Source of the DNA: an uncultured Nitrososphaerota archaeon
GTDB taxonomy: Archaea; Asgardarchaeota; Njordarchaeia; Njordarchaeales; Njordarchaeaceae
Reading direction: 5' to 3'
DNA length: 14,434 bases
NCBI GenBank assembly: GCA_964518475.1
Contig: CAZFGR010000034.1
Span: forward strand, 1 to 14,434
Shown piece after piece: positions 576 through 14,434 of the stretch. Made by a program: the position numbers and the translations under genes. The stretch's first letter is position 1. Each line of letters opens with the position of its first letter. The notes below the pieces were generated by a model, which saw only the letters and a list, made by a program, of their open reading frames with translations, made no database searches and was not told the DNA's origin.

Positions 576-1724
576 TTAAGATCTACTTATAGATTTTCGA
601 TTTATACCTAAATATATGGCTTGAATTGCTTGGGCGATGATAAAGGCAAGGGCTAAGCCTAGTTCGCCTATAATGCTTCTCATGATTACTAGTCCAGTTA
701 TTAGCGAGACTATGTAGATTACGCCTGCGATGAAGACAGCTCTGCTTTTCCCATTTGCTAGGAGGCTGGCAGTTAGCATAGCTACGGCTGTTGATGGTAT
801 GACAGCTAGACTCATGAGTTGTACGATTGGAATGGAGTCAGCGAAGGATGGGAATAGGGTTTGTATTATGTGTGGACTTACTATATAGAAGGCGAGGGCG
901 AGGACTACGGCGAAGATCAGGCTGACTAATTTAAGTTCTTTCTTGCTTTTCCCGCTGGATTCTTCTGGTAGCAGATACCCGTATAGGCTACCAGATATTA
1001 TGCTTAGGAACATGAAGAATTGAAAGCCCAACTGGTACAGTCCTAGAGTATAATAGCCGAATAAGGAGCCTACGATGATTTTATCAAGGAAGTTTGGAAG
1101 GGTTTTTCCGATGAGATTATAGCCATAGGCGTGGAGGGCGAAACTCCATTTTTCTTTCAAGCTTTTGATTTTAAGGGTGAGGTTTCTAAGGGAAAGAAAG
1201 TATTTGTAGCTGAAGGCTAGGTAGCCTAAGAAGTAGCCCAGTATTATACCCGTTAAACCCGTGTGGAAGTAGAGGAGAAGCGAGGAGGTTATTTGGAGAA
1301 GCCTTGCTCCGATAGATAACAGGGCGTATTCTCGGTACATTTTTCTGCTCAGTAGTTCTGCCTGCGTCATGGTGAAGAAGAGCATGGTGGCTGAGAGAAT
1401 GCCTAAGCTCCAGTGGAAAATGGAGAGGCTGAAGGCTAAGATCAAGCCAGATATGAGGATTAGGGAATTTGCCTCGTAAAGAACTTCTTCCTCTCCTTTG
1501 GGCAGAAAAGCGATTACTGTGGTGTTCAACCCTATAGCACCTAAGGCTGTGAAAATAGAGGCTAAAGACAAGTAATAGTTCACTAAGCCATAACTGCTTA
1601 CTTCAAGAATAGTGGCTAGGATGAACCAGAAGAAAGCGCCCAAGACCGCTGAACCCATATTGCCTAAGGTAACGTAAACTAGGCCTATGTCCTCTTTCAA
1701 TAGCCTCTTGATCAATCCTCTCAT
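576..1724 (-). CDS. Oligosaccharide flippase (Wzx/AglR-like, MOP superfamily)
   Basis: 382 aa with ~11-12 hydrophobic segments. Motifs GNMGSAVLGAFFWFILATIL..SSYG and LDKIIVGSLFGYYTLGLYQLG are typical of polysaccharide-biosynthesis flippases. Glycosyltransferase context. Confidence 0.85.
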   Translation of the reverse strand: MRGLIKRLLKEDIGLVYVTLGNMGSAVLGAFFWFILATILEVSSYGLVNYYLSLASIFTALGAIGLNTTVIAFLPKGEEEVLYEANSLILISGLILAFSLSIFHWSLGILSATMLFFTMTQAELLSRKMYREYALLSIGARLLQITSSLLLYFHTGLTGIILGYFLGYLAFSYKYFLSLRNLTLKIKSLKEKWSFALHAYGYNLIGKTLPNFLDKIIVGSLFGYYTLGLYQLGFQFFMFLSIISGSLYGYLLPEESSGKSKKELKLVSLIFAVVLALAFYIVSPHIIQTLFPSFADSIPIVQLMSLAVIPSTAVAMLTASLLANGKSRAVFIAGVIYIVSLITGLVIMRSIIGELGLALAFIIAQAIQAIYLGINRKSISRS

Positions 1725-2133: not shown

Positions 2134-5100
2134 CTACTTAGAGACTCTAAACCGCCTTCGTTTAAAGAATCTTTTGAGTCTTCTCTCAATCTCTAGCACC
2201 CAAGTATCCCCCTTCTCCCTCCTCCAGTCGTAGAATAAGTAGACTATACAGCCTACATGCGTTGCAAGGGATACTCTCAAGCCGATTTTAAACCAATCCT
2301 GAGGCTTATATCGGATCACAATTTCAAGCTCACCAGTCTCATTTACCCAAAAACTATTGATAATCGAATATAGCGGAATGGGCTCAACAATTCCGACTTC
2401 TTTGCCATTCTTGTATACTCTAGCCTCCCAAAGCGGATCGTAGGTCATGGCAAATGAGAGCATGAATGGTCTCGTTGCGTTGACCCTAACTTTCCAAAGG
2501 GTAGGATTAATTTTCTGGTAGTCTATTATCTCAGCATATTCTTCCTTAGCTTCAAATAATTGATCTATCGTTCGATTGGTTTTGGTGGAGTATAGCCATA
2601 TGTTAAGGATGTAAGCTCGCGATAGCAAGTAAATAGTGATGTTACCAAACCACGTAGTAGCATTTCCTTTACTTGGATCGAGTACCCAACCAGCATTAAG
2701 GGCAGGTCTTATTTTAGTTATGTTCTCCGGGATTACGATTACAGCCTTATATTCTTTCCAATCCGAAGTGCCATCTTGCCCTGGAGGTACCTGTACTAGC
2801 TGCAAGGACTTACTCCATTTCTTTGTCACGTTGTCGAAGCCTAATATAGATATGTGACTTTGTTTAACGTTTTCATATCTCATGTGTGTGACGATCAAGT
2901 ATGCATTTCCGGGATTAACGTCTATAGGCTCCCCAAGTATCCAACTCCAATCTCGTTTATTTCTGCTCGTTACGACCTTCAACACATGTTCTTCATTAGG
3001 TCCTTCACGTGTGATATTGAGAACGTAACCTTTGGATATAGCCTCTTTGATATCCCATTCACGCAGATCTTTAAATGAATACTCCTTTAAAACTATAATG
3101 GGTGTTGTAATGGTCAAATTATACATTCCTTTCGATAAAAAGAGGGGTCCAAAATATTTGTAACTAAAATCAATGCTGCTGAATTTAAATCTCTGATTCG
3201 CGATCCTCGCCTCAAAGTAGCCTTTCCCATAGATAACTAGCGTATATCTGCCGCTTTTAGGAACATAAATATTTTCATTAACAGTTTTTCCCGACTTTAC
3301 GTAAAAAGTCTCTCCAGAATCGCCAACTATAATCATCTGTGGCATAGCCTCTACTATCTTATTCGGTTCTTCGTTAATCTCATATATTATTATGTCTCTG
3401 TTTTCAAAAATCTTTGTTATTAAACCTTCTTTTTCGAGGTTCTTTACGAATTTTATTGTTAATGGTGCAATTCTTATGTAGTATGGAAAATTTTCGTACT
3501 TCAGCGAGAAATCTTTATGTAAGACTATATATTTTATGCTTACAATCTTTAATAAATTCAAGAATGCCGAATAATCATTTGCTTCTATGTATCTAGACAA
3601 ATAATCTATAAATACTCTATCTGCCGGTGAGAAATGAGCGAACTGAATAACTGTGCTATGCGGCACAAATGCCCAGACTAATGACTTGAGAGCTACGCGG
3701 TTAACTTTTCCTGAAATATTATAAGAGTACGTTGCTGTAGGTGAGTATGGGACGACCAAAAGTCTGTAACTCGTTAAATCACTTAGATTTTTTCCTAATT
3801 GTTTTTCCAAGCGGAGATAATCTGTTGAGGATAGATCTATTTTATCAGTAGGGTGAACTATATTGCCCGTAAAGAAAGGGTAACCTAAGAAAGAAAACAG
3901 TATAAAAATTAACAACAAAATTGCATAAAAATGTTTAGATTTGAGCAGCATGTACATTCTTCTAAATAAAAATAGTAAGATTAGGCTATAAATAAGGATA
4001 AAAGAATAGATAAATCTATCATGGGGATGTCTAAAGAAGATTTCATGTATTTTTAGCAAATATATGCCTATTTCACTAAAGGGGTCTGCAGTACCCTTCA
4101 TAACTATGGGGAATAATATGAAAAAGGCGACTAAAATGAGGAATAATTTTTTTAAAGTTTTATCTTTTTCTTCGCTGTATAAGACTATTGAAAGGGCGAA
4201 TAATATTGGATGAATAAACAGCAAACTTGTGACTAAATTATTATTTAGATAAGATTCCGCCCAAGCAAAGGGATAGCTGTCCATATAAGTACTATGGAGA
4301 ACCCAATAACCAATAAATCGATAGATGTTTGCAATTGTGGTGAATTTAGATGCGTACTGGAGAATCTCTACTGTAGGCGTGTATGCTCTTGGTTTTGCAT
4401 TAAGAGCAGTGTATTTGCTTCCGATGATTTGTGGAGTAAAGGCCCAAAATATTAGTAATGTGAATACGGCAATGAATGTTAATGCTTTTAGTGCTAGAGC
4501 TTTTATGGTATAGTTTTTCTGCTTCACATACACTAAAGTAGTTATAAGAAAATACATAAAGAATAAATTAAAGAATCCAACTTGAGAAAATCCAGCCCCA
4601 AGGGGCGTCAAAAACGTCAATGCAGAAAGTAGAATGAACTTGAAGTTTGATGTGCATAGATACCGTAGATAAAAGTAGCAGAGTAGCGGGGTCGCCGCCA
4701 AAAACGGTGCCCAGCTCATATATCTGCCAAAAGACATGCTCATCGTGATTGGATTCACAACATAGAAGAATGAGACTACTATTAACGCTATTTTAACTTC
4801 ATTTTTCTCAACGTTTAAGCCGAGTAAAACTTTCCCTATTTCTCTGAAAAATAGCCATGAAAATGCAAATGCGGTGAATACGGTTAGATAATACATTATG
4901 AATTGAGATATAACTAACGCTTGCCAATAGTCAAGAAATATTGAGAAGAATTTTAATAAAAGTGTCTGGAAAAAGTAAAATGGAATTAAATTAAAACCAA
5001 ACCCTACTGTACCTAATGAGATCGAATCTCGCCAAGAATACATAACTACTTCATATAACATTCTTTCTGGGTTCAATGAGAATAATCCGTCTATTTGATG

Positions 5101-5235
5101 TATATAGTTCCATCCATCAAACCAGTTTATAACAGCTAAAGAAACAGAGAAGAATATAAGAATTTCGTACTTTATACTTATTATCTTATCGTAGATGCTT
5201 CTAATGATTCCTTTAATGGTTCGTCCTCTTCTCAT
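2134..5235 (-). CDS. Large GT-C-fold-like membrane glycosyltransferase (AftD/DUF3367/YfhO-like) with an extracellular CBM-like domain and a C-terminal TM anchor
   Basis: About 460-aa polytopic N-terminus (QIDG after TM1, FFYVVNP, FRHPHDRF, YPFFTG), then YRLLVVP and IKYIVLHKD. A CBM4/9-like segment follows (PIDVNPGNAY...GTSDWKEY...TWFGNITIY), then a YfhO-like tail (FMLSFAMTYDPLWEA...INSFWV), a final TM and a basic tail. Confidence 0.7.
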   Translation of the reverse strand: MRRGRTIKGIIRSIYDKIISIKYEILIFFSVSLAVINWFDGWNYIHQIDGLFSLNPERMLYEVVMYSWRDSISLGTVGFGFNLIPFYFFQTLLLKFFSIFLDYWQALVISQFIMYYLTVFTAFAFSWLFFREIGKVLLGLNVEKNEVKIALIVVSFFYVVNPITMSMSFGRYMSWAPFLAATPLLCYFYLRYLCTSNFKFILLSALTFLTPLGAGFSQVGFFNLFFMYFLITTLVYVKQKNYTIKALALKALTFIAVFTLLIFWAFTPQIIGSKYTALNAKPRAYTPTVEILQYASKFTTIANIYRFIGYWVLHSTYMDSYPFAWAESYLNNNLVTSLLFIHPILFALSIVLYSEEKDKTLKKLFLILVAFFILFPIVMKGTADPFSEIGIYLLKIHEIFFRHPHDRFIYSFILIYSLILLFLFRRMYMLLKSKHFYAILLLIFILFSFLGYPFFTGNIVHPTDKIDLSSTDYLRLEKQLGKNLSDLTSYRLLVVPYSPTATYSYNISGKVNRVALKSLVWAFVPHSTVIQFAHFSPADRVFIDYLSRYIEANDYSAFLNLLKIVSIKYIVLHKDFSLKYENFPYYIRIAPLTIKFVKNLEKEGLITKIFENRDIIIYEINEEPNKIVEAMPQMIIVGDSGETFYVKSGKTVNENIYVPKSGRYTLVIYGKGYFEARIANQRFKFSSIDFSYKYFGPLFLSKGMYNLTITTPIIVLKEYSFKDLREWDIKEAISKGYVLNITREGPNEEHVLKVVTSRNKRDWSWILGEPIDVNPGNAYLIVTHMRYENVKQSHISILGFDNVTKKWSKSLQLVQVPPGQDGTSDWKEYKAVIVIPENITKIRPALNAGWVLDPSKGNATTWFGNITIYLLSRAYILNIWLYSTKTNRTIDQLFEAKEEYAEIIDYQKINPTLWKVRVNATRPFMLSFAMTYDPLWEARVYKNGKEVGIVEPIPLYSIINSFWVNETGELEIVIRYKPQDWFKIGLRVSLATHVGCIVYLFYDWRREKGDTWVLEIERRLKRFFKRRRFRVSK

Positions 5236-5415: not shown

Positions 5416-6747
5416 TCAAAGACATCGCTCTCGGAAAATTTTCATGACTATTTTAGAAATTTCCCAAATTTTTCGGTTCTTACTTATAAAGTCTTTTATT
5501 TTGTCTTCATTATTCTTGCTGTATATTAAGTATACTCCATCTAGTGTATGAGTACCATTGTGTGAGGGATCGACGGGAAGTCCAATTATTTCGTCTCTAC
5601 CAAACTTCGCTCCACTAAGTGGGTAGAATCCGTAGTTTGGTATGAGAAATATATCAGGTAGTTTAACATTCGTGTTTCTATATAGCTCTTTACTATCAAA
5701 TACGTACAGAAACACTTTTTTTCCATTGACTTTAAAGTTTTTAAGCATATCAATTATCATTCTCTTTAGATCTTCATCTTGAACGCTTATACTCCAAGAA
5801 TCAGAGTTATAAATGAGCCTCTCCGACACCTTAGATGTTATGACTTCTTTATCTTCGATGGAGAATACTTTCTTAGCGCATTGCACGACTCTTCTAAAAG
5901 GAGTATACCTCCAAGCGAGACGAATCAATACATTCAGAATCCTTCTCTTGAGATTATTTGAATTTCTACCGAAAACTTTTTTTAGTAAATTATCAACGTA
6001 GATAACCGCTTTTACCGTATTATGACCATGATCCGAAGCAACAATAAGCCAATCATCGCTTTCCATTTCTCTTAAAAATTTTGATAGTATCTCGTCAACT
6101 TTTTTATAAATGCTAAGTATTTTCGCTTCATCCCTGTAAAAATGCTGAGCAACATCGGTTTCTCTAAAAACAAACCAGAAAACGTCAAATTCACTAAGTT
6201 TCAATAGTCTTAAATATGCCTCGGTTCTTTTATCCATCAAATCCAATAGATACTCAAAGGCTTCTTCCTTGTTCCTATGGTATTTCTTCCTAAACTCCAC
6301 TATATCTATATCTTTAGGCAGACCAATTCTATTCGCTAGAATATATGCCCATTCTTGCGGATATACTATCCTTTTGAAGTCATTGGTGGGCGTCGGGAAA
6401 CCAGAGACAATTAATCCATTGATGCTTTTATCAGGGGGGTAGGTCATAGGCACATTAACTACGCAGAATCTAAGATCTTTGAGATAATCCCACAGCTTCT
6501 TTACTTTTATATTATTGTAATTCATTACCTTGCGGGTTTCTACATTGATAAACCCATATATCCCATGCTCAGCTGGCGTTTTGCCAGTAAACATCGAAAC
6601 CCAAGCCGGAGCCGTCGATGGCGGAATCGTGCTTTCTAATTTACCGATAAAATTTCTGAGCTTTCTAAAAGCGGGTAAAGCACCTATATATTTTTGAATT
6701 CTATTATAATCCAATCCATCAAATCCTAGAATTGTTATCCTCATCAT
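5416..6747 (-). CDS. Alkaline phosphatase superfamily protein (type I phosphodiesterase/nucleotide pyrophosphatase family)
   Basis: Metal and nucleophile motifs ILGFDG, STIPPSTAPAWVSMFTGKTPAEHGIYGF, ETDVAQH, IVASDHGH, NGTHTLDG. No signal peptide. Overlaps the GT4 3' end; the start may be ATG 6744. Confidence 0.88.
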   Translation of the reverse strand: MMRITILGFDGLDYNRIQKYIGALPAFRKLRNFIGKLESTIPPSTAPAWVSMFTGKTPAEHGIYGFINVETRKVMNYNNIKVKKLWDYLKDLRFCVVNVPMTYPPDKSINGLIVSGFPTPTNDFKRIVYPQEWAYILANRIGLPKDIDIVEFRKKYHRNKEEAFEYLLDLMDKRTEAYLRLLKLSEFDVFWFVFRETDVAQHFYRDEAKILSIYKKVDEILSKFLREMESDDWLIVASDHGHNTVKAVIYVDNLLKKVFGRNSNNLKRRILNVLIRLAWRYTPFRRVVQCAKKVFSIEDKEVITSKVSERLIYNSDSWSISVQDEDLKRMIIDMLKNFKVNGKKVFLYVFDSKELYRNTNVKLPDIFLIPNYGFYPLSGAKFGRDEIIGLPVDPSHNGTHTLDGVYLIYSKNNEDKIKDFISKNRKIWEISKIVMKIFRERCL

Positions 6748-7873
6748 CCCGCCCCCAATATACTTTTAAGATCTTATCGCACACTTTTTCCCATCTCCAT
6801 TCCTGGGCTTTAGCTTTATTGTTCTCAGACATCTTGTTTACCAAATCTTCATTATTTAGTAGAGATATTACAGCATTCATAAATCCTTTCTCATTTGCCA
6901 CTACAAACCCATTCTCTTCATTCTCAACTAAATACTCTAAGGGAGTAATATTGCTGACGATTACGGGCTTACCTCTTGCCATGGCTTCTTTTACTATTAA
7001 TGGCTCTGTTTCGAAATGAGATACTAAGACCACAGCCAAAGCATTGTCTATAAGTTCATACTTTGATTCTCCGTAGACCTCTCCTAGGAATATCACTCTA
7101 TCTTGAAGTTTAAATTCTAAAATCAAATTGTTTAAGTACTTATAGTACTCTTTATCCTGTATGGAACCTGCTATGAGAAAGTTAATTCTAACCCTATCTT
7201 TTATTTTTCCAAGATTCCTGATTACGAACTCTAAATTCTTAATTCGCGAAATTCTGCCAATAAACAATAGGTATGGTGTATACACCTCTAAGTCAACACT
7301 TTCTTTCTTTGGTAAACTGTATGCTAATTTCTCAACAGCATTTGTAATCACAACTATTTTTCTAGCATTAACGTCCTCCCTGATTAATTGTTCTCTTTCC
7401 CATTCACTTACTGCTATAATTTTGTCTACCACGTGGTTTAAGAAGAATTTTCCTAAGGTTTTATGATATATTTGCTTAATAAACCCGCCAAAACTAGAAA
7501 AACCTTTCCACCATGGCGTAAATCCGCCGTGTAGAGTGATAACTAGCTTCGGAGTTCTCATTTTAAATAGTCTTCTGATGAATATTTTCAGGAAAATCCA
7601 GAAATGTGGGAAGACATTAAAATTATGAAGATGAATAACATCGACATCGTTGTCCTTAGGAACGTATCTCCAGAAATCCTTGTATCTGAATACTTTGATA
7701 CCATCTATAATTTCATAATCCTCTAAGATGCCCCGCTCTGTAAGGGTGTCCTTAGATGTGTGTATTTCGACGTCTATGTCTCTTTTTAGTAGCTCCTTAG
7801 CTAAATTGTAGCAATGGTTCTCTATCCCACCTTTTACGGGCAAGAAATATCTTGTTATAATAACAACCTTCAT
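6719..7873 (-). CDS. Glycosyltransferase family 4 (GT-B)
   Basis: FLPVKGGIE, DVIHLHN, LFIGRISRIKN, and the E-x7-E motif ETEPLIVKEAMARGKPVI; C-terminal W..WEKV. Confidence 0.93.
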   Translation of the reverse strand: MKVVIITRYFLPVKGGIENHCYNLAKELLKRDIDVEIHTSKDTLTERGILEDYEIIDGIKVFRYKDFWRYVPKDNDVDVIHLHNFNVFPHFWIFLKIFIRRLFKMRTPKLVITLHGGFTPWWKGFSSFGGFIKQIYHKTLGKFFLNHVVDKIIAVSEWEREQLIREDVNARKIVVITNAVEKLAYSLPKKESVDLEVYTPYLLFIGRISRIKNLEFVIRNLGKIKDRVRINFLIAGSIQDKEYYKYLNNLILEFKLQDRVIFLGEVYGESKYELIDNALAVVLVSHFETEPLIVKEAMARGKPVIVSNITPLEYLVENEENGFVVANEKGFMNAVISLLNNEDLVNKMSENNKAKAQEWRWEKVCDKILKVYWGRDDEDNNSRI

Positions 7874-8079
7874 TTTCTCACCACAGCATAAATGTTACAA
7901 CCCGGTCTAGGGATGATCTTCGAAATCATAAGATCAATGAGTTTCAACTGTCTCGGAACAATTCTGGTTTGAACAGTTTTATACTTCAGGATTTTGAATC
8001 CATAGTCTAATAACATTTCACGTAGACTTAGATAAGTAAACACCCTTAGATGCGCCACAACCTTCCCCTTCTCTTTCAT
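7870..8079 (-). pseudogene. C-terminal remnant of a probable class I SAM-dependent methyltransferase
   Basis: HLRVFTYLSLREMLLDYGFKI...IYAVVRK resembles the C-terminus of methyltransferases found in glycan loci. No SAM-binding motif is present. The stop overlaps the GT4 start (ATGA) and the 5' side lies ~60 bp from an IS end. Confidence 0.6.
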
Positions 8080-8137
8080 AAATTCTTAATTTATGATTTT
8101 TGATGAATGTACAACTTTTTCTAATATACTTCTTTTC

Positions 8138-9171
8138 GGCTTTGTTTCAAATTTCTCTTTTTGCCCCTTGTCTCGTTCAGCCTTCTAAGCCTCTCTCAGC
8201 CGTTTAATTAGGACTTAATGCGACGATCCTGGCCACGTTATAGGCTAGGACTACGATGAAGACGTCACAGACTCTTGCCTCCCAAGATCTACTATAGAAC
8301 ATATCCCTAACCATAGCCTTTGGAGAGGAAAATGCGTCCTCTATGAGACTCCTAACATTACCAACCAAGTCTCGGAAAGTCTCATAGTTTATCCAAGCCT
8401 TGAGTCTAGATCCGCCTTTGAGTGTCAACTTCCCCGGCCTAGTTGAGATAATCGGAACAAGTCCACATCTTTCTAAGCTCTCTACGACGTCGGCTATATT
8501 ATACCTCTTGTTTGCGAGAGCTCCTCAGAAAATCCCAGTACTCATTAAGGCTTTGAGGAGGTAGTTTCTGAAGGCATCGATCTCCAGAGCGTACAGAGCA
8601 GTCAACAACAAGCATTCCCGTTGCTTTCTCATTCGCTTTAGATAATGACTTGACGTCCTCCCGAGCCTGATACCAGTTCTGTCCACAATGCTAATAATTT
8701 TCCACAGATCCTCGTTCTTGCCAGTTCATGGAAGAATGAGCCTTATCAACAGAGCTACTGTTGCTAGGAGATCAGTCTTCCACCTATGCACGGATGCTAG
8801 GCTCGGCACTCTTTCCAAGCCAATTCTCCCGCATGTGTTGAAGTCTCTTGAGGTCGTCTAATGCTCGTCTATAGTTCCGGTTGTTAAGGAGTATCCATGC
8901 CAGAACAGCTATCTTAGAGGCTATGGAGTACCCCTTCGGTCTCTTCTCTTTCTCTGGCTGGGTAGGCTTTTCTTAGCTAGTTTATAAATGGCCCTAATAA
9001 TTATAAACTTGCCGAGCCAACATATTTTCGTTGGGACGCCCCTTTTTTTCTCGTGGGGTCGCAGGCAATACGTTTATAATACCTATAAAGGCGCCCCACC
9101 ACAAAGCCACTACAAAGCCATTAACTGGCAAGAACTAGGCTGAGAAAAGAGATAAATTTGAAAACACAGCC
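8138..9171 (-). mobile_element. Degenerate IS5-family insertion sequence (~1034 bp)
   Basis: Imperfect terminal inverted repeats: GGCTTTGTTTCAAATTT at 8138 versus reverse complement GGCTGTGTTTTCAAATTT ending at 9171. The GGCTTTG start resembles IS903-type ends. Encloses a broken DDE transposase. Confidence 0.82.
8204..9031 (-). pseudogene. IS5-family DDE transposase pseudogene
   Basis: Stitched across frameshifts: RPKGYS...NYRRALDDL; GLERVPSLASVHRW; SIVDRTGIRLGRTSSHY (first Asp); LANKRYN (decayed ADKGYD); RSLIEDAFS (Glu); VLAYN. Has an in-frame TGA, and ACG at 9031 where the second copy has ATG. The 74-aa ORF 8204..8428 is its tail. Confidence 0.82.
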
Positions 9172-9222
9172 TTTCTTTAGAGAATTTTCCATATCACTTT
9201 ATCGTAGATAATACTGAGGATC

Positions 9223-10155
9223 CTAGCGACTCATCATCTTCTTCATCAATCTAAAGCCGTCGATAACACCCTTAATAATCGCTTTAAGCACCTCGCATCT
9301 ACGGGCAGAGATCTCTTTGAGAGACAAGATCATATAGTAGGCTGTTACCGCGAGAGAGGCTAGTAATGCTACGGATCTCTGCAATGCGCTCTTGCTCCAC
9401 AGGGCGTGGAAGAGTATGCGGTTTCTGATAGTGTAGTATGCCCGAAGGGGGTTCCTTAGGCGGAAAAACCCTGCTCTATTCTCTTTTGGTAATGGTACGT
9501 CATGCCATACTTTTGCTGTTGGTACAACCATTACCTTATACCCAGCTTTTCTAACCCGTTGACAGAAGTCCGCTTCATCATAATGTATGGGGAATATCTT
9601 TGAATTAAATAGGCCAACTTTTTCGAATATCTTCCTCCGAACCATGAAGGCGTTTGGGAAATCCTCAGACTCGTAGGGCTCCCTATACTGACCGATATCT
9701 CTAGTGTTGTGCCCTACGTATTTTGTTATTGTGGTCCAGTAGTTTCGCTTAATACCAGCACACCCTATCCTTGTTGGGTCCTTTAAGAAGTACATTATTG
9801 GCCCCGTGACGCCTACTTCGGGGTGTTTCTCCATAAACTCTACGAGCTCCCTTATGGTGTTCTTATCCACAACATTATCATCGTCTATCAAGAAGATGTA
9901 CTCGCCCTTAGAAGCTCTTATACCTATGTTCCGTGACTCAGCTAAAAGCTTCTCTTCATTATTGCGTATAACCTTCACCCGAGGGAACAGCCTCTTGATG
10001 TATTCATGCGTACCATCGGTTGAAGCGTCATCAACAACGATGATCTCCAGCCTGTCTCTCGGGTAGTTGCTTTCAAGAATAGACCTAATCAGGCGTGCTA
10101 GTTTCCTCTTCCTATTATATGTGGGGATTACTACTGATACCACTGGTCTATCCAT
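9223..10155 (-). CDS. Glycosyltransferase family 2 (GT-A)
   Basis: VSVVIPTYNR, IIVVDDASTDGT, SRNIGI, FLIDDD (DxD), YDEADFCQR..GYKV..P.AKVWH; C-terminal hydrophobic helix. Confidence 0.93.
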   Translation of the reverse strand: MDRPVVSVVIPTYNRKRKLARLIRSILESNYPRDRLEIIVVDDASTDGTHEYIKRLFPRVKVIRNNEEKLLAESRNIGIRASKGEYIFLIDDDNVVDKNTIRELVEFMEKHPEVGVTGPIMYFLKDPTRIGCAGIKRNYWTTITKYVGHNTRDIGQYREPYESEDFPNAFMVRRKIFEKVGLFNSKIFPIHYDEADFCQRVRKAGYKVMVVPTAKVWHDVPLPKENRAGFFRLRNPLRAYYTIRNRILFHALWSKSALQRSVALLASLAVTAYYMILSLKEISARRCEVLKAIIKGVIDGFRLMKKMMSR

Positions 10156-10431
10156 GAGTATCCCTCTATACCCCCAATATCCTCCAAACTAAGTATTCAT
10201 TAAGACCTCGTTAGTCCATATTAATATCAGACTCGATGTTAAGCAGGATCGCCAAACCTCTGGAGTTGGGAATTGCCCCTTTGTCGCTTTTTGGCAAAGA
10301 TCTAGTTGTTGCGTGTAATTACTTTTGGTAATTTCCATCTTATGTTTACAAACTTTATTTTTAACAGTATGGTAAACCAAAAACTGTAATTAATTTTTTT
10401 CAAATTTAAATCACTACTACACTGTTAACGG

Positions 10432-10570
10432 TTACTTACGAGTTACTTATCAGTACCCCTATTACGTTTAATTGAGCATATATCGAGATCTCTTGGATAC
10501 ACATCATGAAGAGCTCTTAACATAATTAGTACCATCCTCTGGTGATATTGCCTCTCCACTCACCCCTTAT
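10432..10570. repeat. Copy 1 of a diverged ~140-bp direct repeat (partner 13472..13612)
   Basis: By-eye alignment gives ~68-70% identity with one 2-nt gap, mostly transitions. Shared blocks include TTACGAG, GTACCC, TATCGA, ACATAATT, TACCAT, CACTC. Confidence 0.8.
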
Positions 10571-10571
10571 A

Positions 10572-10807
10572 TTCGGTCACTTCCTCCTTCTTCGGCTTGG
10601 TAGACTTTTCCTGACCAGTTTATAAATAATCATAATAACAATTATAAATCTGCCTAGTTGACATATCTTCATTGGGCATCTCTTTTATAGTATGCGTCGC
10701 AAGTAATACGGTTATAATACCTATAAAGGCGCCCCACCATAAAGCCACTACAAAGCCATTAATTATCGAGAACTAGGTTGAGAAAGTAGAAAAATTTGAA
10801 ACACAGC
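10572..10807 (-). mobile_element. Truncated second copy of the IS5-family element (one end plus the transposase 5' end)
   Basis: 10696..10807 is ~88% identical to 9058..9170, and weaker similarity continues to ~10572 (vs ~8935). The end AAATTTGAAACACAGC is a 15/16 inverted match to the IR at 8139. ATG 10672 gives MKICQLGRFIIVIMIIYKLVRKSLPSRRRRK*. Confidence 0.85.
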
Positions 10808-10817
10808 TGTTTAAAGT

Positions 10818-10830
10818 AAAACTTTTTATC
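10818..10830 (+). promoter_or_regulatory. Possible BRE-TATA promoter for the UbiA-HAD cassette
   Basis: AAAACTTTTTATC just outside the IS end. If real, it favours ATG 10879 or 10909 over GTG 10843. Confidence 0.3.
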
Positions 10831-10842
10831 AGGCGATATACA

Positions 10843-11808
10843 GTGAAAAATAGATGGGGAAAAGGGATATTTAAAGTGATGCTTTTAATCTTTTACAACA
10901 CAAACACAATGATTGTAAATCCCATTATTTATCTAAGATTTTTAATTCCATATTTACTATATCTGACTTTATTACACAACGATATAATCAACTTTCATAC
11001 GGTTCTACACTCTATTTTCATTATGGTTGCTCTTCTGTTGTTATATAACGTCACATATATAATCAATGATTATTACGACTACGAGAAAGATCTACTTATA
11101 GGGAGGCGTAAAAGGAGCTTTGTCTATATAATATCTGCCGAATTCAAGTCCATCTTCATAATCCATTTCCTAGAAATAGCAAGCCTATTAATGATATGTA
11201 TGGCTCTTTATGACCATACCGTAGCTGATATGCTGTTAATCCTATACTTGGTTCTAATTATTCTTTCAATAATTCACTCAAAGATTTATCCAGCTAAGTG
11301 TTTTACTTTCCTAGTGCTTAGGTATATCAGAGTGTTTTCTCTGCCTTTTTTTCTTTGTCTCCTTGACTATCCTTTTTCTAAAGAATTTTTGATAGAGACT
11401 CTTATTATTTTTCCCCTATGGAATTATGGAAGTTATTTGGACTATTTACGGACAAAGAACCTAATAGGTAATATTAATGGTATTATCAGATTTCTGTCTC
11501 TCCTTTTTTTAATCAGCCCTTTACTTCTCGCACTTTATGAGGTATTACTGTTTCATTTAAACATATATACTTTAATAACTTTAACTATATTAACAATAGC
11601 ATTAGCGTTTTCACTAAATATTATCAAGCGTTACAATCCTCTAAGGGGTTCCAAAATAATACGTAGACTTTTAAGCTCATTTGGATATCCCGAGCAAGTT
11701 ATAGATGAAAAAGTGGATCTTATCTTAGAGTATTTCATATACTTCCTAGTTTTAGTTGGGATCTTTTTTGCTGAGGTAACCTGTTATGCTAATAGTACTA
11801 GACTTTGA
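10843..11808 (+). CDS. Divergent UbiA-superfamily membrane protein (candidate polyprenyl-phosphate phosphoribosyltransferase)
   Basis: About 8-9 hydrophobic segments. YIINDYYDYEKD is the first Asp-rich NDxxDxxxD motif, followed by basic RRKRS. The start may be ATG 10879 or 10909. Overlaps the downstream HAD gene by 23 nt. Confidence 0.7.
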   Translation: MKNRWGKGIFKVMLLIFYNTNTMIVNPIIYLRFLIPYLLYLTLLHNDIINFHTVLHSIFIMVALLLLYNVTYIINDYYDYEKDLLIGRRKRSFVYIISAEFKSIFIIHFLEIASLLMICMALYDHTVADMLLILYLVLIILSIIHSKIYPAKCFTFLVLRYIRVFSLPFFLCLLDYPFSKEFLIETLIIFPLWNYGSYLDYLRTKNLIGNINGIIRFLSLLFLISPLLLALYEVLLFHLNIYTLITLTILTIALAFSLNIIKRYNPLRGSKIIRRLLSSFGYPEQVIDEKVDLILEYFIYFLVLVGIFFAEVTCYANSTRL

Positions 11809-12397
11809 CGGAACATTAGTTGAAGAAAATTCATCCAGATTATTTGAAAAGCAATTATTGGAAAGAGATCAACCTTCAATATTAAAACATCTTCTTCTCT
11901 TAGTATTCTTCTCAAGATTATCATATTTCGTAGATTTTGTATTAACTATAATTTCGAAAATTACCAATGGTTACGATTTACGGAGAAGAATCATTATAAA
12001 AAATGTCAGCAGACACATTGATGTTCAAAAAATTTGTGAATGTATAGAACTAACTGCCAAAAGTTTAAGCTTTAATAAGTCACTTTCTTCTCTCGTTAGT
12101 TCCTACCAGAATAAGCTTTTAATTCTTTCTAGTGGTCTCGATGTGATTATACGTAAGTTTTTAGAAATAAGAGGAATAAGAGTGAAAGCAGTTATTGCGA
12201 GCAAGCTAACTATTGATCAGAATAGTATAAAACTTTTATACGAAATCAGACCGAAAGACAAAGTGAAAATTTTATGTAGGTTGTCGCATCGTTTCGGGAA
12301 ACTGATCTATATAACTGATGATATGAGGGAATATTACGTTCTAAGAGCAATGTTAATAAGAAATAGTTGTGAAAAAGTAGTCTTAGTCTTGATATAG
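11786..12397 (+). CDS. HAD-superfamily phosphatase (HAD-IB-like)
   Basis: Motif I IVLDFDGTL, motif II ILSSGLD, motif III lysine (PKDKVK), atypical motif IV YITDD. GAGGT lies upstream of the ATG. Confidence 0.82.
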   Translation: MLIVLDFDGTLVEENSSRLFEKQLLERDQPSILKHLLLLVFFSRLSYFVDFVLTIISKITNGYDLRRRIIIKNVSRHIDVQKICECIELTAKSLSFNKSLSSLVSSYQNKLLILSSGLDVIIRKFLEIRGIRVKAVIASKLTIDQNSIKLLYEIRPKDKVKILCRLSHRFGKLIYITDDMREYYVLRAMLIRNSCEKVVLVLI

Positions 12398-12423
12398 TGA
12401 ATACTTAAGCCGGAGGAAAGTCC

Positions 12424-12603
12424 ATGCCCAACGAGGATCCTTTGGCGTCAGTAGTTATACCTACATACAATTCGGAGAATACACTATCACCGCACCTAGA
12501 ATCAATAAAGAGACACAAAAGCATATATAAGAGTATATTGTTTGAGATAATCATAGTTACTAGTATGAATTTTACAGATGATATTGTTGGAACCCGATTG
12601 TAA
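12424..12603 (+). pseudogene. Truncated GT2 N-terminal stub (59 aa)
   Basis: GGAGG then ATG: MPNEDPLASVVIPTYNSENTLSPHLESIKRHKSIYKSILFEIIIVTSMNFTDDIVGTRL*. It parallels the next gene's N-terminus (PLVSVIIPTYNSE...IEIIVVD) but lacks the conserved Asp and the rest of the fold. Confidence 0.75.
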
Positions 12604-12633
12604 AATGGCGGAGATCAAGAACTGCTGGAGAGT

Positions 12634-13467
12634 TTGGTTGGTATGAGGGGCTCTCCGTTAGTTTCTGTGATAATCCCAACTTATAATTCTGAAAAATTTA
12701 TTGAATTGTGCTTGCAGTCGATTAGAAAGCAAACCTATAAAAATATAGAAATCATAGTAGTTGATAAAGGTTCAAAGGATCGTACAACTTCTATCGCTAA
12801 GAAATATACAGATAAGGTTTTCGTTATTCCAGCCAAGGAGAGAAGTGAACAGAAGAATTTTGGAGCGAAAAAAGCTAAAGGTAAGTACTTGTATTTCGTA
12901 GATTCTGATTTCATCTTAGAGCCGACGGTTATTGAAGAAGCTGTTAGTAAATGTGAGAAATACGGTTATGACGCTGTATGCGTTCACAATACATCGGACC
13001 CCCATATAAGCTTCTGGTCAAAAGTTAGAAAATTAGAGAGAGATTGCTACGGGGATGATGAACTAAATGTTGCTGCTAGATTTATTAGAAAAAATGTTTT
13101 TGAGAGCATTGGTGGATTCGATGAAGAACTAGTCGCTGGAGAAGATTATGATTTCCACAACAGATTGCTGAAAGCGGGGTACAAAGTTGGTAGAATCAAG
13201 GCTAAGGAAATACATGTTGGAGAACCAAGATCCTTATGGGAAATAGCTAAGAAACACTATTATTACGGAAAAACACTACCAAGATTCTTAAAAAAGAATA
13301 AGAAACGCGGGATAAAACAGCTAAGCCCCTTAAGACCAGCATATTTGAAACATTGGAAGGAATTCGCCAAACACCCCATTCTAACACTGGGTTTTATCAT
13401 CTACCAAATAGTTCGGTACACTTCGGCGGGACTGGGATATTTAGTTGGAATGGTAAAAAAAGAATAA
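12634..13467 (+). CDS. Glycosyltransferase family 2 (GT-A)
   Basis: VSVIIPTYNS, IIVVDKGSKDRT, FVDSD (DxD), GGFDEELVAGEDYDF; C-terminal hydrophobic helix. The start may be ATG 12643. Confidence 0.93.
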   Translation: MVGMRGSPLVSVIIPTYNSEKFIELCLQSIRKQTYKNIEIIVVDKGSKDRTTSIAKKYTDKVFVIPAKERSEQKNFGAKKAKGKYLYFVDSDFILEPTVIEEAVSKCEKYGYDAVCVHNTSDPHISFWSKVRKLERDCYGDDELNVAARFIRKNVFESIGGFDEELVAGEDYDFHNRLLKAGYKVGRIKAKEIHVGEPRSLWEIAKKHYYYGKTLPRFLKKNKKRGIKQLSPLRPAYLKHWKEFAKHPILTLGFIIYQIVRYTSAGLGYLVGMVKKE

Positions 13468-13471
13468 AAGT

Positions 13472-13612
13472 TTATTTACGAGCCGCTTACCGGTACCCTA
13501 ATTATATCTAATTAAGCAGATTTATCGAAATCTTATGGATCCATGCTTTGAGGAACTCTCGACATAATTGATACCATACCCTACTAATGTTGGCTCCTCA
13601 CTCTTTTCCCAT
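13472..13612. repeat. Copy 2 of the ~140-bp direct repeat
   Basis: Aligns with 10432..10570 and begins 4 nt after the GT2 stop. Confidence 0.8.
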
Positions 13613-13950
13613 TGGATCTTCACAAATGTGCTTCAGCGCAATGTACTTCGTCGCCTCATTCAGCACTAGCGCTAACTGCTTGACCTCTTTGATGCCCTGA
13701 AGACTATCCAGTAGTCTCTCAAGAATTTTCTAGGAGGCATTATCGGTACCCGCGGATCAATGTATGTTAGGAACTTGTGCTTCTCAATATTCTTCCAGCT
13801 AAGGCCTTCGCCAAACTCCCTCCTCAAGACTTCTTAGGTGGCTCTAAGGGTCAAGCCGCTCAATAACTCCCTAAGCTTAGGAATCTTACGCAATGTAACT
13901 CCTTAGCACCAAGGCCCAGCAACTTTGCCAGAGTCTTGGGACGCTCGGGG
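13475..13950 (-). pseudogene. Decayed gene of unknown family
   Basis: Protein-like pieces across frameshifts and stops: KTLAKLLGLGAKE / LRKIPKLRELLSGLTLRAT*EVLRREFGEGLSWKNIEKHKFLTYIDPRVP / KILERLLDSLQGIKEVKQLALVLNEATKYIALKHICEDPMGKE*GANISRVWYQLCREFLKAWIHKIS. Repeat copy 1 has TGG where this copy has TGA. Boundaries are approximate. Confidence 0.5.
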
Positions 13951-14319
13951 CTCGAAAACTGTAACAACTCAGATACAGAAACGTTTCGAAACAGTAACGG
14001 ATAATACTATCCCGCCCATCTTCATTGAGGTTCTTTGGGGGCAAGATCTCCCTCTTCAGAATTCTTAGACAAGAGAAAAATCGAACTTAGTTATCTCCAT
14101 ATTGGGTATCGTTCTGATTGCAATTATTATACTACGGAAAACTTTAACCCATTGAGGAAGTACTCCTCGTTTTTTAGAGGAAGATTTTCATAATATATTA
14201 GCTATTATTTGCGATAAAACCTTTCCTTTTTAGTTCATTTTTATTCTTACTCGCCTTTTATTTACTAAACACTTTCCTTTAAATCCTTATCGAAATGTCC
14301 TAAAATCTCTTGGTATACT

Positions 14320-14433
14320 CTATGACCCTCTTAGGAGGATTCTGGATAATACCTTCTTAAAGTCCTCTGCACTTTTGTCCCAGTTGAATTGTTTTGCCCA
14401 ATTTAGAGCGTTCTCTGCTAGTTCTCTCCATAG
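14320..14433 (-). CDS. C-terminal end of a GT4 glycosyltransferase (enters from beyond the window)
   Basis: LWRELAENALNWAKQFNWDKSAEDFKKVLSRILLRGS* matches the terminal helices of GT4 enzymes; compare MSENNKAKAQEWRWEKV in 6719..7873. Confidence 0.8.
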   Translation of the reverse strand, partial: LWRELAENALNWAKQFNWDKSAEDFKKVLSRILLRGS

Positions 14434-14434
14434 T

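Follow-up and report, generated by a model that had tools for sequence, protein, structure and literature searches.

A UbiA-like membrane protein coupled to a HAD phosphatase as a candidate source of lipid-linked ribofuranose in archaeal surface-glycan loci

This work deals with a stretch of DNA of 14,434 bp (referred to as the window), which is the whole of a contig from a 2.33-Mb archaeal genome bin (91% complete), and with two overlapping genes in it that encode a UbiA-like polytopic membrane protein of 321 aa and a phosphatase of the haloacid dehalogenase (HAD) superfamily. The two genes form a conserved, translationally coupled module, which is found in glycan loci and in the company of a large membrane protein with the fold of the glycosyltransferase AftD. 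According to these features, the pair may be regarded as a split and very divergent analogue of the bacterial polyprenyl-phosphoribose synthase and phosphoribose phosphatase (PPPRS-PRP) that would provide dolichyl- or polyprenyl-phosphate-ribofuranose to this AftD-like glycosyltransferase of the GT-C type, as a mobile cassette within archaeal surface-glycan loci. In our estimation, this proposal has an even chance of being right. A first-pass annotation of the sequence had already proposed for the pair a candidate lipid-linked pentofuranose pathway modelled on that of mycobacteria. The idea of a lipid-linked ribose pathway is retained here, in agreement with the conservation of the pair, its glycan loci, the AftD-like GT-C and the design of the bacterial fusion protein ORF15 discussed below, whereas the membrane protein does not fall in the clade of the mycobacterial enzyme Rv3806c.

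Conservation and coupling of the gene pair

The two genes of the pair, with the evidence for each of them, are the following:

10843..11808, forward strand: UbiA-like polytopic membrane enzyme, 321 aa, GTG start; open reading frame (ORF), Pfam UbiA match at E=0.025 (below cut-off), AlphaFold2 (AF2) model and fold matches
11786..12397, forward strand: HAD-IB phosphatase, 203 aa, ATG start; PF12710 at 32.1 bits (cut-off 27), TIGR01488 at E=4.6e-9

Both reading frames are open and they overlap by 23 nt. Together with the invariant motif of the membrane protein and the PF12710 match of its partner, this confirms what the first-pass annotation had seen at this position, namely an NDxxDxxxD membrane protein overlapped by a HAD phosphatase gene. 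In six of the eight loci examined, the UbiA-like gene is immediately followed, mostly with an overlap, by a homologue of the HAD gene:

Window locus: the HAD gene 11786-12397 itself
P0006 locus: downstream HAD with 34% identity to that of the window, E=8e-22
P0007 locus, from a Candidatus Baldrarchaeia metagenome-assembled genome: downstream HAD with 31% identity, its true start being upstream of the called start
P0011 locus: downstream HAD with 34% identity
P0008 locus (L008 6360-6560): HAD present as a 66-aa stub that begins with DFDGT
P0014 locus, with a UbiA-like gene only 23% identical to that of the window: downstream HAD, profile E=1.6e-25

The distant family members P0013 and P0016 are followed by other genes and not by a HAD gene. 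The pair is a conserved and translationally coupled module. An intact phosphatase is apparently not required for the membrane enzyme to be maintained, as at the P0008 locus. A complex prediction for the UbiA-like and HAD families scored 0.00, which is no verdict and speaks neither for nor against binding. As a side observation, the metagenome assemblies ERZ1742239 and ERZ27227320 contain both the window locus and the P0006 locus (L005/L006 and L055/L056), with UbiA-like genes that are 36% identical; the module is present in two distinct organisms from one community. Among sequencing runs, a single DNA run was listed, from a sediment metagenome that is perhaps the source sample, and no RNA run.

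A distinct clade of remote UbiA-superfamily members

Judged by its sequence, the 321-aa protein is only a remote, superfamily-level member of UbiA. Its match to the Pfam UbiA family (PF01040) reaches 14.3 bits, under the gathering cut-off of 34.2, and PF01040 is matched by only five of 19 family members, the best of them at E=1.4e-4. The family appears to be small as well: an exhaustive HMMER search of 1.84 billion representative proteins returned only 22 members at E<=1e-3, while among 400 genomes of the phylum a single one contains it, and none of six congeners does. When the single protein was used as the query, a word-indexed homologue search recovered only the protein itself, a related-locus search of genome contigs gave no relatives, and phmmer gave no match among PDB sequences.

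Conservation was assessed in an alignment of 19 relatives (A1; 19-53% identity), with the 16 full-length members being used for the residue counts. The Asp-rich motif NDYYDYEKD occupies residues 75-83, and its N75, D76, D79 and D83 are invariant in all 19 sequences, which at such levels of identity indicates that NDxxDxxxD is no chance match. It is followed by LLIGRRKRS where HPxKxxRP is usual, a replacement (by IGRRKRS) that had been pointed out in the first reading of the sequence. H145, K152, T155 and R160 are also invariant in A1, and the N-terminal FYNTN is conserved. Overall, the conserved residues comprise Y18, N19, T20, N21, N26, Y68, Y72, K90, H145, S146, K152, T155, R160, R163, P191, Y198, Y201 and K205. 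Among the full-length members, D76, D79 and D83 are the sole conserved acidic residues, and five positions are basic: K90, K152, R160 and K/R205 in 100% and R/K163 in 94% of them. No second Asp-rich motif (DxxxD after the sixth transmembrane helix, TM6) and no conserved acidic residue past D83 were found; the corresponding region contains P191, Y198, Y201 and K205. By the combination of FYNTN, a single NDxxDxxxD, HS(x5)KxxT, (E/L)RxxR and YxxYLxxK, the protein can be assigned to a clade of the UbiA superfamily that had not been named before.

The usual functions of UbiA enzymes are covered elsewhere in this genome. Its canonical genes for CyoE (haem O synthase), digeranylgeranylglyceryl phosphate (DGGGP) synthase and MenA sit on other contigs, and since these roles are filled there, 10843-11808 is a fourth, non-housekeeping UbiA-like gene of the genome. 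There are no quinone, haem or ether-lipid genes among the genes of the window, as had been stated previously.

Fold and putative active site of the membrane protein

The AF2 model of the UbiA-like protein (pLDDT 88, pTM 0.88) presents a polytopic all-helical UbiA-like fold with approximately nine TM helices, and its fold matches are limited to the UbiA-family and isoprenoid-synthase folds. In a Foldseek search of the PDB, the top 13 matches are all UbiA-family chains, with weak scores (E=0.09-0.7, TM-score of about 0.4). Alignment with VIA-align ranks Rv3806c, the DPPRS of Mycobacterium tuberculosis (8j8j), nominally first with a Z-score of 9.8, followed by AfUbiA (4tq3, 9.7), ApUbiA (4od4, 9.3), DGGGP synthase (DGGGPS; 6m31, 8.6) and UBIAD1 (8djm, 8.0), all of them tied with soluble trans-prenyl synthases of related fold. 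The comparison of structures and profiles with Rv3806c and DGGGPS therefore supports the UbiA fold expected in the first-pass annotation, but it scores DPPRS and DGGGPS alike.

Some further signals point weakly towards the DPPRS branch, as does the rank of 8j8j in VIA-align. The sole match of the family profile among PDB sequences is 8j8j (E=0.005). By features, the Atlas places an archaeal cluster with a DPPRS annotation closest (0.87), to be taken as no more than a lead; by shape, the best match is an actinobacterial DPPRS cluster with TM-scores of 0.58/0.60 over 249 residues. Other nearest structures in the Atlas are bacterial fusions of PAS domains with UbiA (from Fidelibacterota and others; TM-scores of 0.43-0.56), an architecture that is uncharacterised.

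The conserved residues gather at the ends of the helices of the model. N75, D76, D79 and D83 are located at the end of the helix formed by residues 51-86, in agreement with the cytoplasmic end of TM2 where the first Asp-rich motif is expected; H145 and S146 are at the end of the helix 125-147; K152-R163 are at the start of the next one; and P191-K205 are at the end of the helices 179-204. The three loops that bear these motifs are presumably the cytoplasmic active-site loops of UbiA enzymes.

The active site of Rv3806c offers a reference for these positions. In this enzyme, a single Mg2+ is held by Asn73 and Asp77, Tyr70 and Tyr138 are near the reaction centre, and the diphosphate of phosphoribosyl pyrophosphate (PRPP) is bound by Arg22, Lys87, Arg90, Lys143 and Lys208 (PMC10994848). 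UbiA enzymes that use prenyl diphosphates, in contrast, need a second Mg2+ in an acidic pocket (PMC10994848). Here, Y72, N75, D79, K90, H145, K152 and K205 stand at positions similar to those of residues in the Rv3806c site, the Asp motif is single, and the family is fully basic at K152, which lies in the loop following TM4, and at K205, in that following TM6. As far as these residues allow to judge, the pattern, with one Asp-rich motif and six basic positions that are for the most part conserved, resembles the one-Mg2+, Lys/Arg-lined site of Rv3806c and not the two-Mg2+ site of the prenyltransferases.

The HAD partner

The best NCBIfam match of the phosphatase is the HAD-IB model TIGR01488, at 36.5 bits and under its cut-off of 45. 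Motifs I (DFDGT; D6, D8 and T10), II (S115), III (K157/K159) and IV (D178) are invariant in the alignment of six relatives (A2), which makes the phosphatase look active. In the cap, residues ~33-60 are hydrophobic (LLLLVFFSRLSYFVDFVLTIIS) and are scored as a TM helix by a hydropathy scan; most relatives keep this stretch, while it is largely deleted in the 173-aa homologue of L004. Such a hydrophobic cap segment would suit a membrane-bound substrate.

The AftD-like GT-C and its linkage to the pair

The large membrane protein of the window, of 1033 aa, is by its fold an AftD-like GT-C with outer carbohydrate-binding domains. Its architecture comprises approximately ten N-terminal TM helices, beta-rich outer domains that resemble carbohydrate-binding modules (CBMs) and a C-terminal TM helix. 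A model built from a 12-sequence alignment (pLDDT 70) finds AftD (6w98, E=4.9e-10) as its best match in Foldseek, followed by DPY19, STT3 and EmbA/B/C, and CBM4/16/22 for the outer part. Its feature neighbours in the Atlas are GT-C_AftD and YfhO clusters (0.96-0.99), and its homologue P0034 has a PF11847 domain, while the 1033-aa protein itself has no Pfam match. Another homologue, P0031, is from Thermococcus litoralis. AftD, the best structural match, is a user of a lipid-phosphate-pentofuranose, and the 1033-aa protein is in turn a candidate user of the lipid-linked donor.

The linkage between this GT-C and the pair is not particular to the window. Homologues of the 1033-aa protein were identified in the large membrane proteins encoded close to the pair in L004, L007 and L009. 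Four loci extend for several kb to either side of the pair, and each of them therefore has a GT-C of this family within ~6 kb. Within the phylum, the GT-C family is present in 11 of 400 genomes. Every locus of a UbiA-like homologue that was examined is a glycan locus with GT2, GT4 and methyltransferase genes. The survey of homologue neighbourhoods thus agrees with the first-pass expectation that the pair would be accompanied by HAD and GT-C genes in glycan loci.

In the window, the GT-C is one of a series of genes on the reverse strand:

576..1724, reverse strand: candidate MOP-superfamily (Wzx-like) flippase, 382 aa, ~9-10 TM helices; PF13440 at 23.1 bits (cut-off 23), PF01943 at 26.5 bits (cut-off 28.2), hydropathy scan
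2134..5235, reverse strand: AftD/YfhO-like GT-C, 1033 aa; Foldseek, Atlas, homologue with PF11847, hydropathy scan
5416..6747, reverse strand: alkaline-phosphatase-superfamily enzyme (Phosphodiest), 443 aa, no TM helix; PF01663 at E=6.6e-29
6719..7873, reverse strand: GT4 glycosyltransferase, 384 aa; PF00534 at E=9.6e-32
9223..10155, reverse strand: GT2 glycosyltransferase, GT2(310), of the older core locus, 310 aa, one C-terminal hydrophobic helix; PF00535 at E=3.6e-37

The setting of GT2, GT4, flippase and GT-C-like genes that had been described around the pair is consequently upheld by Pfam matches, weak in the case of the flippase, and by fold in the case of the GT-C. GT2(310) was considered as a lipid-phosphate-sugar synthase of the DPMS/GtrB type, which would be a rival source of donor, and this gained no support: in the PDB it matches GT2 enzymes of a generic kind, and DPMS (E=4e-8) ranks below chondroitin synthase and others.

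The Phosphodiest protein, which has no match among PDB sequences, shows an association of its own. A gene of this type (Sulfatase in L004) is adjacent to, or one gene away from, the AftD-like GT-C in every locus seen (window 5416-6747; L042 6267-7592 and 11362-12882; L043 2535-3944; L004 5880-7304). The recurrence of this adjacency suggests a functional partnership between a cytoplasmic enzyme of the alkaline-phosphatase superfamily and the AftD-like GT-C.

Proposed pathway and comparison with known systems

In the proposed pathway, the UbiA-like enzyme would bind a diphosphate donor, most likely PRPP, at the cytoplasmic face of the membrane, by means of one Mg2+ at N75/D79 and of K90, K152, R160, R163 and K205, and would transfer ribose-5-phosphate to dolichyl or polyprenyl phosphate. 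The co-translated HAD-IB phosphatase would then remove the 5-phosphate to yield lipid-phosphate-ribofuranose. After the donor has been flipped outward, for which the MOP flippase is a candidate, the AftD-like GT-C could use it for the decoration of the surface glycan. In an archaeal host, dolichyl phosphate would act as the carrier. A search of the 91%-complete genome gave no DprE1-like ALO domain, in line with the lack of dprE1/E2 genes already reported for the window, and for this reason the product would be ribose and not arabinose if the pathway operates in this manner.

The closest precedent is not the mycobacterial system but another bacterial one. Citrobacter youngae O1/O2 has a three-component pentofuranose system formed by ORF15, the MATE flippase ORF14 and the GT-C ORF12, which belongs to GT136 (Kelly et al., PNAS 2024, PMC11127046). 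ORF15 is a fusion of a HAD-type PRP to a UbiA-family PPPRS and produces farnesyl-phosphate-ribose from PRPP in vitro, whereas the Pseudomonas syringae homologue of ORF15 has the HAD at its C-terminus (PMC11127046). Both systems have a UbiA-fold enzyme with NDxxDxxxD, a motif that is essential in C. youngae, coupled to a HAD phosphatase. Their glycan loci also encode a MOP/MATE-type flippase, in the window a candidate, and a GT-C whose outer domains are CBM-like, and the absence of DprE1/E2 from both fits ribofuranose. The HAD after the UbiA domain in the P. syringae homologue corresponds to the order of the two genes described here. They differ in that a fusion is replaced here by two separate overlapping genes; in that, beyond the first motif, PPPRS and the membrane enzyme are not significantly similar; in the GT-C, which is AftD/YfhO-like here; and in the host, which is an archaeon.

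With Rv3806c (8J8J/8J8K), the UbiA-like protein shares the fold class and, as it appears, a single-Mg2+ site to which the first motif contributes its Asn and an Asp, a Tyr that is conserved at the third position ahead of this Asn, the lack of a second Asp-rich motif, and Lys/Arg residues in the loops after the first motif, TM4 and TM6. An AftD-like GT-C is the downstream user in mycobacteria and the putative one here. The two proteins are only 11% identical in the structural alignment, though, and Arg22, Lys28 and HPxKxxRP are not conserved here. The mycobacterial partner phosphatase, Rv3807c, is a PAP2 protein and not a HAD, and no epimerase is present here. The phosphatase analogy with mycobacteria drawn in the first-pass annotation, which did not cite the HAD-UbiA precedent of ORF15 (PMC11127046), accordingly holds by function only.

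Canonical DPPRS-like genes are also known from archaea of the same phylum. At E<=1e-10, 183 of 301 genomes have them; the carriers belong to other families of the phylum, and none is from the order of the window. Archaeal genes of this kind match NF008977 with ~150-236 bits and are flanked by DUF362, PHP phosphoesterase and LPG_synthase_TM genes in two loci (L013 333-3873; L014 3-3495; ~230 bits). They share with the pair the arrangement of a UbiA-family gene beside which genes for a phosphatase and a membrane protein are found, but they match the DPPRS model strongly, and the 321-aa family is not among them. The PHP phosphoesterase that follows them indicates that the combination of a UbiA-type phosphoribosyltransferase and a phosphatase of varying superfamily is a recurring design.

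The route from PRPP through lipid-phosphate-ribose to a GT-C is proven only in bacteria, from which such systems have already been published, and a literature search gave no report of an archaeal surface glycan with a pentofuranose derived from a lipid-linked donor. If the pair makes dolichyl-phosphate-ribose, archaea too would have the three-component logic, a function would become known for a UbiA-superfamily clade that family models miss, and the one-metal, Lys/Arg-lined site would be seen to survive a rebuilding of the remaining PRPP pocket. In practical terms, a UbiA-like gene overlapped by a HAD gene beside an AftD-like GT-C may serve as a marker for such systems.

Evidence against a phosphoribosyltransferase role and alternative functions

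Several results weigh against the proposed role of the pair in the synthesis of lipid-linked ribofuranose. To begin with, the NCBIfam search of the 321-aa protein gave nothing at E<=0.1, including the DPPRS models NF008976, NF008977, NF008978 and NF006088. The basic residues Arg22 and Lys28 in TM1 of Rv3806c align at best, and with low confidence, with YNTN, which contains no basic residue, and K90 alone remains after the motif where HPxKxxRP has been replaced; archaeal DPPRS-like proteins, by comparison, retain R16, Y21, K22, N23, H74, K77 and P81. Direct kinship with Rv3806c, the enzyme after which the first-pass annotation had modelled the pathway, is not supported, in view of these missing equivalents and of the lack of matches to NF008977, NF008978 and NF006088. 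The equivalence of K152 and K205 with Lys143 and Lys208 stems from numbering and loop position and not from superposition. In VIA-align, 8j8j, AfUbiA and ApUbiA have tied Z-scores, none of which reaches the level that the tool considers safe for helical bundles. In hhalign, the family aligns with 17 archaeal DPPRS-like sequences at 93% (columns 49-174) and with a DGGGPS-seeded set at 95.5%, the latter set having taken in three DPPRS-like sequences and both alignments covering mostly the region of the first motif. Remote matches of the family profile in the genomes are mixed across UbiA subfamilies. Nothing so far ties the HAD to PRP domains: the phosphoserine-phosphatase-like 3kd3 is the closest relative of solved structure (E=0.002), and NF006088 gives no match at E<=0.1. 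Finally, the cassette that carries the pair is an insertion, and the closest relatives of the GT-C (75% and 50% identity) have no pair on their contigs, where they occupy syntenic GT2-GT4-Phosphodiest-GT-C loci, from which it follows that the 1033-aa GT-C does not need the pair.

Some lines of analysis were discarded. As a ranking of subfamilies, hhalign does not separate DPPRS from DGGGPS, and the CyoE set aligns poorly; global hhalign was likewise abandoned for the mapping of C-terminal residues, with confidence being too low beyond a YNTN/YKN hint. A preference of the family profile for DPPRS paralogues was also rejected, the remote matches in 400 genomes being DGGGPS-like, DPPRS-like, other and unclassified UbiA proteins. 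By sequence, then, the protein falls outside the DPPRS family, and the proposal is that it may work like one.

One alternative, which is unlikely in our view, is that the membrane protein is a true prenyltransferase: a phosphorylated acceptor (such as glycerol, sugar or cyclitol phosphate) would be alkylated with a prenyl diphosphate, and the HAD would then remove the phosphate to leave a lipid anchor or a modified carrier. DGGGPS does act on a phosphorylated acceptor, and together with the other UbiA prenyltransferases (4TQ3, 4OD4, MjDGGGPS 6M31) it shares the nine-helix fold and the first Asp-rich motif and scores as well as DPPRS. Prenyltransferases are the top Foldseek matches, the profile match to DGGGPS-like sequences is at least as good as that to DPPRS-like ones, and the N-terminal PRPP-binding basic residues of Rv3806c are not conserved. 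In these enzymes, however, a second Asp-rich motif and an acidic pocket with two Mg2+ are found, the second Mg2+ being required (PMC10994848), whereas the family described here has no such motif and presents Tyr and Lys at its positions. Moreover, prenyltransferases are encoded by housekeeping lipid or quinone genes outside glycan islands and without a phosphatase partner, while no isoprenoid or lipid-synthesis gene stands beside the pair in any locus and its linkage is with GT-C and other glycosyltransferase genes.

The same two-step logic could also serve another head group, if a diphosphate or phosphoanhydride donor other than PRPP were transferred to the lipid phosphate and the HAD trimmed a phosphate to generate a new donor for the GT-C. 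This, too, seems rather improbable, as does the broader view that the 321-aa protein founds a UbiA clade with a new transferase chemistry, making a non-ribose lipid-phosphate donor from a source other than PRPP for the archaeal AftD-like GT-C. That the family forms a clade of its own with FYNTN, HS(x5)KxxT and (E/L)RxxR would be in line with it, and so would the lack of clear equivalents of Lys28, Gln135 and Tyr157, which contact the ribose and the 5-phosphate in Rv3806c; the coupling to the HAD and the linkage to the GT-C would fit any phosphorylated lipid-linked intermediate. To our knowledge, however, PRPP is the only common sugar 1-diphosphate. No gene for the synthesis of an unusual donor travels with the pair, and all the characterised UbiA-family enzymes with a phosphatase partner use PRPP (PMC11127046, PMC10994848).

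Least likely, lastly, is the absence of any donor-making role, with the HAD being a lipid (pyro)phosphate or sugar-phosphate phosphatase anchored or fed by the membrane protein (in carrier recycling, for example) or the pair being a decaying hitch-hiker cassette: the insertion contains a GT2 stub and ~900 nt without an ORF, the HAD is a 66-aa stub in one relative and a GT-C orthologue works without the pair, but N75, D76, D79, D83 and five basic residues are (near-)invariant down to 19% identity, the HAD motifs are intact, both frames are open, and gene order and overlap are kept across distant lineages, all of which argues for selection on catalysis.

The inserted cassette and the remains of other genes

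The pair belongs to a low-GC segment in the last third of the window that comprises the following features besides the two genes listed above:

10156..14364, no strand: low-GC cassette with the UbiA-like gene, the HAD gene, a GT2 stub, a GT2 gene and ~900 nt without an ORF; blastn synteny, GC profile
12424..12603, forward strand: GT2 N-terminal stub (VVIPTYNSE...), 59 aa; PF00535 at E=3.8e-5 over residues 9-49
12634..13467, forward strand: GT2 glycosyltransferase, 277 aa, final gene of the inserted cassette; PF00535 at E=4.9e-32

The GC content of the cassette is ~0.31-0.37 over most of its length. Genes that are common to the window and to the locus of its closest relative (L042) have 77-80% nucleotide identity, and in a blastn comparison of the two loci, window 9193-10155 corresponds to L042 3388-2426 and window 14365-14434 to L042 2216-2147, with nothing matching in between. 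The cassette is therefore an insertion, relative to L042, between GT2(310) and a GT4: the final 70 nt of the window match the 3' end of the L042 GT4, a gene that continues in L055. This confirms the first-pass view of the pair as a separately acquired block, different from that of the GT-C, even though the linkage of pair and GT-C recurs in other loci. Diverged direct repeats bracketing the cassette were searched for and dismissed, as the repeat search gave only chance-like matches of 18-26 nt with 69-85% identity. An Rfam scan and a tRNA scan of the window gave no matches.

Some further remains can be recognised in the window. The 59-aa GT2 stub directly precedes the full GT2 and resembles its start; it looks like the scar of a partial duplication. 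Outside the cassette, window 8088-9192 (1.1 kb, GC content of ~0.44) has no ORF of more than 80 aa, no Rfam match and no match in L042, and may be a degraded or replaced segment. Close to it, all that is left of a methyltransferase, complete in L042 (4421-5119), is its C-terminal end, a 69-aa ORF at 7870-8079.

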